Program-made: the position numbers and the translations under genes
Source of the DNA: Candidatus Thorarchaeota archaeon
GTDB lineage: Archaea; Asgardarchaeota; Thorarchaeia; Thorarchaeales; Thorarchaeaceae
Length of the DNA stretch: 31,442 bases
Assembly (NCBI GenBank): GCA_046758445.1
Contig: JBHIAE010000032.1
Location: 1-31,442 of the forward strand
Direction of reading: 5' to 3'
In this document: positions 1,868 through 3,538 of the stretch, piece by piece
Numbering within the stretch: position 1 is the first letter of the stretch
How the letters are laid out: the number at the start of each line of letters is the position of its first letter
The notes under the pieces: generated by a model
Database searches by the model: none
Told to the model about the DNA's origin: nothing
What the model saw: only the letters and a program-made list of their open reading frames with translations

Positions 1868-2947
1868 GTGGGGCCGAGAATCCAGCTTGAGGCTTCTGAT
1901 TCATCCAAAGACACTTTATTAGACGTCTATCGGCTGAATGAATGGGACTCTGGACTCCGTGAATCTGTGAGCCGGCTTGCCAAGAGTAGACGTTATGGAA
2001 GTGGACTCGAATTGTCCAAAGAGGCAGTATCATTCCGATGCGGCGTTTGCAATGAGAGAGTTGTAGTTGGTTCTTCTGACCGCGTCAGGGTGGTCGACAG
2101 ACAACCTGTTTCCAATAGTGCGATCGGTGAAATGGACACGTACAACATTGAATCCGAATGCAGTGACGGTGAAATTCACGTCAACATCATCGTTGTAGAT
2201 GGCGATGGCAGGTATCGCGGGCACAAGCATTCTGCCAAGAAGGAGTCCAAACACATCGACGTAAGTACACTAGATGATCTTCGCCGAATTCTGAGTTTCG
2301 GCGACAATCTCTCAAAGGTATTCTCGACCACTCTAAGAGGCAAGAGCTTCTTGATATGTGGTGAGGAAGACGAGTGTCAAGTCTGGCTTCGTGTTCTTCC
2401 GAGAGTCTTCTCTCTCAGTGACTATCAGGCAAAGCCGTGGATCTATCTCATTGAGGACTTCGTGGAAAGCTACCGAAAGGAACCATTTCCACAAAATGGT
2501 GTTATTGGACTATTGGATAGCGGACTGATTCGACAAGCAATCACTGCTCTGCCGGATGCTCCGCGAGTCGAGCTCAGGAATCGAACGGTGTACCAAGGTG
2601 AATCTCTGGTCTACGCTCAGAATCTGGTGAAGATGCTGCGCGCAATCCCCTCATCAGAAGACAGAGCCCTTATCACCTTAGTTTCAACAGAACTGGATTC
2701 ACTGAGAAGGTTGCTGAATGACCTCACTCAGAATCTAGAGATTGCTCTGACGGAAACTGTAGTACTTGGCGCTGGGCAGCTTTCAGAGGTTGAGTTCATA
2801 GAGTCCGTGCTCAATCAGGTGTTGGCTTCTAATTCGTCTAATGACCTGAAATCAAGATTGAAACGCGAAGAGCTTGAGATTCTTGCTCCTCATTTGATCC
2901 AACGAGTGCCCGCTCTTCGCAAGGCATTCCAAGCCAGAATTGGATAG
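1868..2947 (+). CDS. Putative DENN-like protein with N-terminal Zn-binding module (start may be TTG 2012)
   Basis: C58xxC61...C98/H104 module, followed by a segment reading like core DENN (VFSTTLRGKSFLICGEEDECQVWLRVLPRVF...AKPW...GVIGL...RVELRNRTV) and a helical C-terminus. It directly abuts a small GTPase gene. Confidence 0.55.
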   Translation: MGPRIQLEASDSSKDTLLDVYRLNEWDSGLRESVSRLAKSRRYGSGLELSKEAVSFRCGVCNERVVVGSSDRVRVVDRQPVSNSAIGEMDTYNIESECSDGEIHVNIIVVDGDGRYRGHKHSAKKESKHIDVSTLDDLRRILSFGDNLSKVFSTTLRGKSFLICGEEDECQVWLRVLPRVFSLSDYQAKPWIYLIEDFVESYRKEPFPQNGVIGLLDSGLIRQAITALPDAPRVELRNRTVYQGESLVYAQNLVKMLRAIPSSEDRALITLVSTELDSLRRLLNDLTQNLEIALTETVVLGAGQLSEVEFIESVLNQVLASNSSNDLKSRLKREELEILAPHLIQRVPALRKAFQARIG

Positions 2948-2956
2948 GTGGGCTGC

Positions 2957-3538
2957 ATGGATCAACCAGAATCAAGAGAAGAGTTTCTGGCTAGGATCAA
3001 GAGATCACGGAACATATTCAAGTTCTGCCTTGTGGGCGACGGAGGCACAGGCAAGACCACCTTTGCTCGATTTCTTGCATCAGGCGAGTTGAGCGTGTGT
3101 GAGAATCCCATAAAACGAACCCCGTACATGGATTTTGCTTCAGCGGATCTTGGGGCTGGAAAAGTGCAACTCATAGACCTTGCAGGTCAACGCGAGAGAG
3201 ATGCTCACCCTCTTGACCACATTCCCCATACTGCCCTAAGAGGAGCAGATGTGATTGTATTCTTCTTCTCTCTTGACAACTTCCAGTCCTTCCTCTCAGT
3301 CAAGGCATGGTATGACGAGATCAGAACATTGTTCACAGGATGGGGCGCTCAGATGCCCACCTGTTATCTTGTAGGCAATAAGAGCGACCTAGACAGAAAA
3401 GTCGAGGCCCTGAACGGCATTGATATGGTAGAACGATGTGTCGAGTTCAAGGAATACTACGAAACTTCACTTCTGAGCGGCGAAAACTTGGAGAAGCTCG
3501 TAAATGTTCTTGAGGATGACATGAGAAACAGGGAATGA
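2957..3538 (+). CDS. Ras-superfamily (Rab/Ran-like) small GTPase (alternative start GTG 2948)
   Basis: G1 GDGGTGKTT, G2 T in RTPYMDF, G3 DLAGQ, G4 NKSD, G5 ETSL. An SD-like AGGTG at 2946-2950 precedes ATG 2957. Confidence 0.93.
   Translation: MDQPESREEFLARIKRSRNIFKFCLVGDGGTGKTTFARFLASGELSVCENPIKRTPYMDFASADLGAGKVQLIDLAGQRERDAHPLDHIPHTALRGADVIVFFFSLDNFQSFLSVKAWYDEIRTLFTGWGAQMPTCYLVGNKSDLDRKVEALNGIDMVERCVEFKEYYETSLLSGENLEKLVNVLEDDMRNRE

Follow-up and report, generated by a model that had tools for sequence, protein, structure and literature searches.

In a 31,442-nt stretch of a Candidatus Thorarchaeota archaeon genome (contig JBHIAE010000032.1 of GenBank assembly GCA_046758445.1, positions 1 to 31,442; hereafter the window), two co-oriented open reading frames (ORFs) lie end to end on the forward strand, 1868–2947 followed by 2948–3538. 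The first encodes a protein with a predicted DENN-like fold and the second a small GTPase. An earlier reading, made from the letters and their translations (the sequence-only reading), had proposed that they form an operon-encoded pair of regulator and cognate GTPase. Here we report structure predictions, fold comparisons, profile searches and a survey of 400 Asgard genomes that bear on this proposal. The features discussed are collected in Table 1.

Table 1. Features of the DENN-fold protein and GTPase gene pair, in window coordinates (aa, amino acids, numbered from TTG 2012; AF2, AlphaFold2).
Feature	Position	Strand	Basis or remark
Conserved leader, probably untranslated (promoter and 5' untranslated region of the pair)	1868..2011	+	Divergence pattern
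Coding sequence of the DENN-fold protein, 311 aa	2012..2947	+	Probable TTG 2012 start, TAG 2945–2947 stop; homologues 306–311 aa
N-terminal all-beta zinc-knuckle domain, aa 1–78	2012..2245	+	Six strands, no helix (AF2 model)
Putative zinc ligands C10, C13, C50, H56	2039–2041, 2048–2050, 2159–2161, 2177–2179	+	Conservation
Conserved patch N58, D63, G66, Y68, R69	R69 = 2216–2218	+	Conservation
Core DENN domain, aa 80–197	2249..2602	+	Two helices, then five-stranded alpha/beta sandwich (AF2 model)
d-DENN-like all-helical domain, aa 198–311	2603..2944	+	Six helices (AF2 model)
Upstream stop codon TAG	2945–2947	+	Read from sequence
GGTGG Shine-Dalgarno-like motif of the GTPase gene	2946–2950	+	Overlaps the upstream stop; read directly
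Ras-superfamily small GTPase, 193 aa	2957..3538	+	From ATG 2957; Pfam Ras, G1–G5 motifs
G1 GDGGTGKT	3035–3058	+	GTPase motif
G3 DLAGQ, then family-specific HPLD	3176–3190 (DLAGQ)	+	GTPase motif
G4 NKSD	3377–3388	+	GTPase motif
Switch I RTP; G5 ETS	within 2957..3538	+	GTPase motifs

The gene boundaries differ from those of the ORFs. According to the sequence-only reading the genes abut, which is true of the ORFs, contiguous at 2947/2948, but not of the genes themselves: homologous GTPases begin at a Met equivalent to that of ATG 2957, 6 nt past GGTGG, so the true intergenic gap is 9 nt and not 0. The same reading had the Shine-Dalgarno motif of the GTPase gene overlapping the upstream stop, and the sequence agrees. 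At the 5' end it had placed the start of the upstream gene at GTG 1868, its first 48 codons (1868–2011) having been called by longest-ORF logic. The gene probably starts at TTG 2012 instead, because of where the homologues start and because the preceding segment is conserved without third-position bias, evolving as a noncoding leader does. More distant homologues (306–311 aa) start 3–8 residues ahead of the CxxC of the zinc domain. Relative to two congeners, the 144 nt of 1868–2011 show 9–11% divergence with zero indels, the gene itself 13–14%, and the sequence further upstream (1746–1867) 36% with long gaps. Substitutions at the first, second and third codon positions number 6, 2, 5 and 4, 5, 7 in 1868–2011, without a third-position excess, and 27, 16, 82 and 30, 17, 86 in the gene, where that excess is clear. 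In a first AF2 model the predicted local distance difference test (pLDDT) score stayed below 40 across the residues that 1868–2011 would encode. We therefore number residues from TTG 2012; adding 48 gives the 359-aa numbering of the sequence-only reading.

The downstream gene encodes a GTPase of the Ras superfamily that is intact as judged by its motifs. Pfam assigns it to Ras at 1.6e-16 (60.8 bits against a cut-off of 21.6) and to Roc at 3.5e-7, and its best PDB sequence matches are Rab27B, Rab33B and Rab7L1 (~1e-9 to 1e-8), with Rab1 also among the best. The motifs are invariant or nearly so across 26 neighbor GTPases, and the DxxGQ glutamine and the P-loop glycines are kept in all 26. The protein resembles solved Rabs and the Ras superfamily at large in G1–G5, the DxxGQ glutamine, NKxD and a length of ~190 aa. 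Unlike solved Rabs, to any of which it scores only ~40 bits, it has no C-terminal Cys (prenylation) motif and carries a basic FLxxLKxxK helix, an RTP motif within switch I and an HPLD that follows switch II; this N-terminal helix, RTP, DLAGQR and HPLD are the hallmarks of its subfamily. The FLxxLKxxK helix, which precedes the P-loop (window 2957–3030), is conserved, basic and amphipathic-looking, and recalls the membrane-binding helices of Arf and Sar.

The fold of the upstream protein was predicted with a template-free AF2 model from a 35-row alignment (13 full-length members and 22 N-terminal pieces from genome searches), which reached a pLDDT of 87.2 and a predicted template modeling score of 0.73. 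This model superseded, by its deeper alignment, the first one (7 sequences, 359-aa ORF, pLDDT 57.8), for which Foldseek returned no DENN match and VIA-align only generic Rossmann/CheY-like folds at Z ~6; a DENN fold was then rated at 15%, a rating later reversed. DENN modules are tripartite, consisting of a longin (uDENN), a central DENN and a d-DENN domain; the central DENN is a three-layer alpha/beta sandwich around a five-stranded sheet, with a minimal P-loop-NTPase-like topology and no nucleotide-binding residues, and the all-alpha d-DENN follows it directly (PMC3521125, Zhang et al. 2012). In our model, five strands (113–116, 139–144, 164–168, 185–187 and 192–194) alternate with helices in 113–194, a region that superposes on FLCN, SMCR8 and DENND1 at Z 12–13.3, and six helices (200–210, 217–245, 259–270, 273–282, 285–298 and 300–310) come directly after this core. 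The order of elements that the sequence-only reading had listed for residues ~134–290 is recovered in full, every one falling on a predicted strand or helix. In 359-aa numbering these are a helix at 132–142, strand FLIC at 161–164 with the acidic turn GEED, a helix at 167–180, strand QAKPWI at 187–192, strand 212–216 (GVIGL), a hairpin at 233–235/240–242 (VELRNRTV) and helices within 248–358.

Structure comparisons point consistently to DENN modules. Foldseek against the PDB placed C9orf72, DENND1B, DENND1A, SMCR8 and FLCN at the top (E 3e-5 to 2e-2, probability 0.94–1.0). VIA-align superposed model residues 88–299 on FLCN 347–558 (Z 13.3, root-mean-square deviation (rmsd) 3.0 Å, 172 residues), followed by SMCR8 (Z 12.7), DENND1A (12.2), DENND1B (12.1) and DENND10 (11.5), with the next non-DENN entry at 7.7. 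A search of 48,161 PDB chains that was independent of Foldseek returned DENN modules as all of its top seven entries (Z 8.7–13.3), the next fold being secretion ATPases at Z 7.1. Those seven alignments span the core DENN and the d-DENN (172–198 residues for the top six, 175 at rmsd 6.3 Å for the seventh), and those to FLCN, SMCR8 and DENND1 reach model residues 299–310. P-loop ATPases match as well (Z up to 7.7), but only over the core DENN part, and the Walker A motif is absent; such weaker matches are expected because the topology of DENN is P-loop-like (PMC3521125). An ESM-Atlas shape search found a Heimdall cluster of which 23% of members carry Pfam Folliculin (template modeling score 0.51) as well as DENND1A clusters, and an ESM-Atlas feature search with the same protein gave nothing at or above 0.9. 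That residues 80–310 adopt a DENN fold, made of a core DENN and a d-DENN, is thus well supported at the level of the predicted model. The fold named by the sequence-only reading came first in all three comparisons, over the range it had named. Its closer assignment, to the FLCN/SMCR8/C9orf72 type, survives in part: these proteins are among the top matches, but DENND1 is nearly as close, and with FLCN, SMCR8 and DENND1 within ~1.2 Z units no subtype can be assigned. Elsewhere, a 347-aa protein of another Asgard family (L062:1963–3003) matches the core-DENN strand-helix region with its residues 172–250 (hhalign 84%, E 8e-6); its gene neighbors are an oxidoreductase and an enoyl-CoA hydratase, with no GTPase.

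Ahead of the DENN region lies the putative zinc domain. Among 30 sequences representing three architectures there is no variation at C10, C13, H56, N58 and D63 and at least 90% conservation at G66, Y68 and R69, while the likely fourth zinc ligand is a Cys (C50) in the DENN-type family and a His one column earlier in the other families. The other two architectures that the domain heads are proteins of ~300–310 aa and tetratricopeptide repeat (TPR) proteins of ~740 aa. Aligned by hhalign with the ~300-aa family, the DENN-type family gives a probability of 98.4% (E 5e-15), with homology confined to the first ~115 residues. The zinc-domain profile found nothing meaningful in Pfam or among PDB sequences, including no Robl_LC7 or longin match in Pfam, and an ESM-Atlas feature search with a ~307-aa zinc-domain protein returned nothing at or above 0.9. 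Shape matches of residues 1–78, folded only within the whole protein, are tied and weak (maximum Z 5.9), comprising propeller blades, beta-meanders and a WRKY zinc domain (Z 5.3), with no longin or roadblock structure among them. As modeled, residues 1–78 are not a recognizable longin, though a very derived longin is conceivable. Database gene calls can obscure this domain: one entry (P0005) begins too late and loses the CxxC, its real start being a TTG further upstream, and two others (P0004 and P0008) likewise come without it. The TPR proteins with this domain (~750 aa) occur in tandem pairs at L010:2859–7353 and L044:151–4235, with one GTPase gene in front of the L010 pair and only 150 nt covered upstream of the L044 pair; in the second L010 copy, Lys replaces the conserved Arg (YKTH).

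Full-length members of the DENN-type family are rare, occurring in 8/400 Asgard genomes across two taxonomic families, and among 1.84 billion representatives a profile search recovered only some five full-length clusters; when length was left unrestricted, the same search revealed no fusion of the DENN-fold protein with a GTPase. In 8/8 genomes the GTPase gene follows the full-length gene, at a distance of 7–21 nt in gene calls. At three loci (L005–L007) the pair has been relocated relative to the block of SNF transporter and metallophosphoesterase genes, yet stays together. The adjacency, which the sequence-only reading had expected to be conserved, is therefore far beyond chance and persists through rearrangement.

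The zinc domain itself is more widespread (87/400 genomes). In 35 of the 42 loci sampled for its other architectures, the gene immediately upstream, on the same strand, encodes a GTPase of the same subfamily (21/22 in a first sample and 14/20 in a second, deliberately diverse one). When we ranked the 27–78 candidate GTPases of each of five other genomes by similarity to the window's GTPase, the best match adjoined a zinc-domain gene in 5/5, and in two of the five the second- and third-best matches did so too. The closest paralog in the archaeon's own genome reaches 29 bits, compared with 65–92 bits for the neighbors of zinc-domain genes elsewhere. It is the zinc domain, not the DENN part, that recurs with this GTPase subfamily, an association that looks undescribed. 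The sequence-only reading had regarded the DENN region as the GTPase-linked part; the pairing is indeed conserved, but the zinc domain rather than residues 134–290 is most tightly tied to the GTPase. In the taxonomic family to which the archaeon belongs, a genome that has the full-length DENN type yields just one zinc-domain match, and other genomes instead contain between one and four such genes of different types (~205–330 aa, with ~750-aa TPR proteins in some). Zinc-domain protein types may replace one another within the family.

Fold and linkage together bear on whether the two genes are functionally related at all. One possibility is that they have no direct functional link, the upstream protein being a zinc-finger nucleic-acid binder or serving an unrelated role and its DENN likeness reflecting convergence on a P-loop-like alpha/beta fold with helices. 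Zero sequence similarity to DENN families and tied, weak zinc-domain shape matches that include the DNA-binding WRKY domain are in keeping with this idea. However, convergence would have to explain an exclusively DENN top seven among the 48,161 chains, matched through both core DENN and d-DENN before Z falls to 7.1, as well as linkage to one GTPase subfamily across two gene orders and three architectures, and we consider it very improbable.

We put the probability at roughly 60% that 2012–3538 is a two-gene operon for a non-canonical DENN module (zinc domain, core DENN and d-DENN) and a dedicated Ras-like GTPase, which, we infer, form a complex that sets the nucleotide state of the GTPase. A complex prediction using both alignments, one of the checks suggested with the sequence-only reading, scored 0.48 against 0.00 for the best of three controls, and 94% or more of the contacts are shared between its runs, with partner pLDDT of at least 77. 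The mark that this score passes is reached by 58/80 solved complexes and 2/110 mismatched pairs, but passing scores of 0.60 or less comprise only 7 of those 80 complexes and both of the mismatches, so the result lends weak support. Moreover, the pass may reflect likeness rather than binding, because DENN–GTPase complexes have already been solved.

Under the operon reading, the DENN-fold protein and the GTPase would form a complex in which a zinc-domain face, H-x-N...D-x-x-G-x-Y-R, recognizes the GTPase. Zinc domain and DENN lobe might grip the GTPase between them, much as Rab35 is gripped between the longin and DENN lobes of DENND1, and the nucleotide state of the GTPase would be set by the protein. 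The DENN lobe would either complete such a DENND1–Rab35-like clamp or be a dimerization or output module. The zinc domain is taken as the recognition, and possibly catalytic, element because it is the only part common to all partners of the GTPase subfamily. As to the direction of regulation, a GTPase-activating protein (GAP) is our tentative first choice, since the nearly invariant Arg69 could be an arginine finger and the GTPase keeps the equivalents of Ras Gly12 and Gln61. A GEF (guanine nucleotide exchange factor) is a possible second, an effector or scaffold is on the unlikely side, and any other role would come as a surprise.

Several observations weigh against the operon reading. The C-terminal two thirds of the model are supported by only 13 sequences. 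Pfam searches with seven members found no DENN-type family (DENN, uDENN, dDENN or Folliculin) at E up to 10, and phmmer and profile (hmmsearch) searches of the PDB found no sequence relative, so that membership in the DENN class is a matter of fold; Pfam DENN (PF02141) had zero matches in the whole genome at E up to 1. The score of the predicted complex falls in the weak band described above. The longin, which elsewhere bears the arginine or forms half of the clamp, is absent from the recognized parts of the protein. Seven of the 42 zinc-domain loci lack an adjacent GTPase of the subfamily (six with none within the stretch fetched, and L019 at a contig end). Finally, the DENN part may never touch the GTPase, because the zinc domain alone is common to the GTPase-linked proteins.

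This last point leads to a different division of labor, in which the protein is an effector or adaptor. The zinc domain would then read the GTP state much as a Ras-binding domain does, the variable C-terminal parts would be outputs, and the DENN part would dimerize, scaffold or act on a different GTPase in a cascade. The three GTPase-linked architectures share just their first ~115 residues, TPR partners are typical scaffolds, and in the structures of FLCN–FNIP2 and C9orf72–SMCR8 the DENN domains chiefly dimerize rather than catalyze, all of which suits an adaptor. The invariant polar residues N58 and D63, together with Y68 and R69, nevertheless suit a catalytic or switch-contacting surface better than plain docking, and the DENN fold is otherwise known only from GTPase regulators (PMC3521125). 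On balance we regard an effector or adaptor as possible but rather doubtful.

Conversely, the DENN region might act alone, as the GEF or GAP for the neighboring GTPase that the sequence-only reading had placed at residues 134–290, with the zinc domain as an accessory. The DENN fold match is strong, and in DENND1B–Rab35 (PDB 3tw8) the core DENN makes most of the contacts to Rab35. Yet the same GTPase subfamily is paired with zinc-domain proteins that have no detectable DENN region, while the weak core-DENN relative at L062 has no GTPase neighbor, which makes this option improbable.

Comparison with eukaryotic DENN modules, namely the FLCN C-terminal domain (3v42, 6nzd), SMCR8/C9orf72 (6lt0, 7o2w, 7mge), DENND1A/B–Rab35 (6ekk, 3tw8) and DENND10 (8p0v), shows the same core-DENN sandwich followed by a helical d-DENN (Z 11.5–13.3 over 172–198 residues). 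Small GTPases are what those modules act on, and the gene described here adjoins that of a small GTPase. It differs from them in its sequence (8–16% identity, no Pfam match), in having an all-beta zinc domain in place of the N-terminal longin (uDENN) and in that it is one small protein whose neighborhood contains no FNIP- or C9orf72-like partner gene. In FLCN, SMCR8 and NPRL2 the catalytic arginine comes from the longin, which in DENND1 contributes one half of the clamp around Rab35. Because the zinc domain appears to take the place of the longin, neither the arginine finger of FLCN/SMCR8 nor the longin half-clamp of DENND1 has a recognizable counterpart here.

The zinc domain also invites comparison with the longin and roadblock platforms of GTPases, such as MglB for MglA, NPRL2 and the FLCN-type longins, which have a GP motif and an arginine finger and include Asgard representatives (PMC12290439; PMC3521125); a 2025 discussion notes that Asgard longins resemble GAP longins (PMC12290439). 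Like these platforms, it is a small domain beside, or fused next to, a cognate GTPase, with a conserved arginine and a position ahead of DENN; unlike them it consists of beta strands without helices on either side and carries a Cys2-Cys/His-His site. An attractive, if doubtful, extension is that the zinc domain does the longin/roadblock job as an undescribed, Asgard-wide catalytic partner of one Ras-like GTPase subfamily, most appealingly as a GAP with the Y-R arginine as its finger. If so, the zinc–DENN fusion would be a second, independent platform-plus-DENN regulator of GTPases, parallel to the eukaryotic longin–DENN.

The general arrangement has a precedent. In 2020, Liu et al. (bioRxiv 10.1101/2020.10.19.343400) described an Asgard operon of a LAMTOR1-like roadblock protein, a Rab-like GTPase and a DENN protein, along with other Asgard DENN proteins whose architecture is non-eukaryotic, so that the novelty is lower than the sequence-only reading assumed. 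The published operon shares with ours the Asgard host and a DENN-type protein encoded with a non-Rag Ras/Rab-like GTPase. It differs in its roadblock gene: no roadblock or longin gene flanks the pair in the window, and no Robl_LC7 gene adjoins any homologous pair examined. The DENN-type family described here is, besides, a rare one. What looks new is a DENN protein that has a zinc domain, apparently lacks a longin and can be assigned a specific GTPase partner; the advance lies in this architecture and in a pair open to testing rather than in a principle, because the general Asgard DENN–GTPase operon is already in print. The genome under study has a separate operon on contig 7 (L041:2263–4726) for a 315-aa protein with an N-terminal roadblock (Robl_LC7 6e-9), a 306-aa protein and an Arf/Ras-like GTPase, which probably corresponds to the published one. 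Its 306-aa protein is highly conserved (226 relatives; 74–100% identity among the 120 matches listed). An hhalign comparison of the DENN-type family with this 306-aa family gave a probability of 0.2%, which says little because both profiles are shallow (effective number of sequences, Neff, ~2).

Dozens of eukaryote-like small GTPases are encoded in Asgard archaea; to our knowledge, a regulator or partner is known for almost none of them. Against this background, the locus provides a small, matched protein pair of 311 aa and 193 aa that looks soluble, and it singles out particular residues for mutation. A DENN fold in archaea without a recognizable longin partner is relevant to the assembly of the tripartite module of eukaryotes, and the unnamed zinc domain is the best marker of the partners of one GTPase subfamily across Asgard lineages.

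Turning to the surroundings of the pair, the leader (1868–2011) had zero Rfam matches, and its predicted RNA fold is no better than that of shuffled sequences (z 0.79). Judged from its sequence, it is probably a promoter, a leader or a regulator-binding region. Within it, AAAGACACTTTATTAG near 1906–1921 looks like an archaeal B recognition element and TATA box (BRE/TATA), and GGAAGTGGAC lies at 1997–2006, ahead of TTG 2012; transcription is predicted to start near 1945. The genes flanking the pair encode an amidohydrolase, a methyltransferase, an SNF transporter and a metallophosphoesterase.

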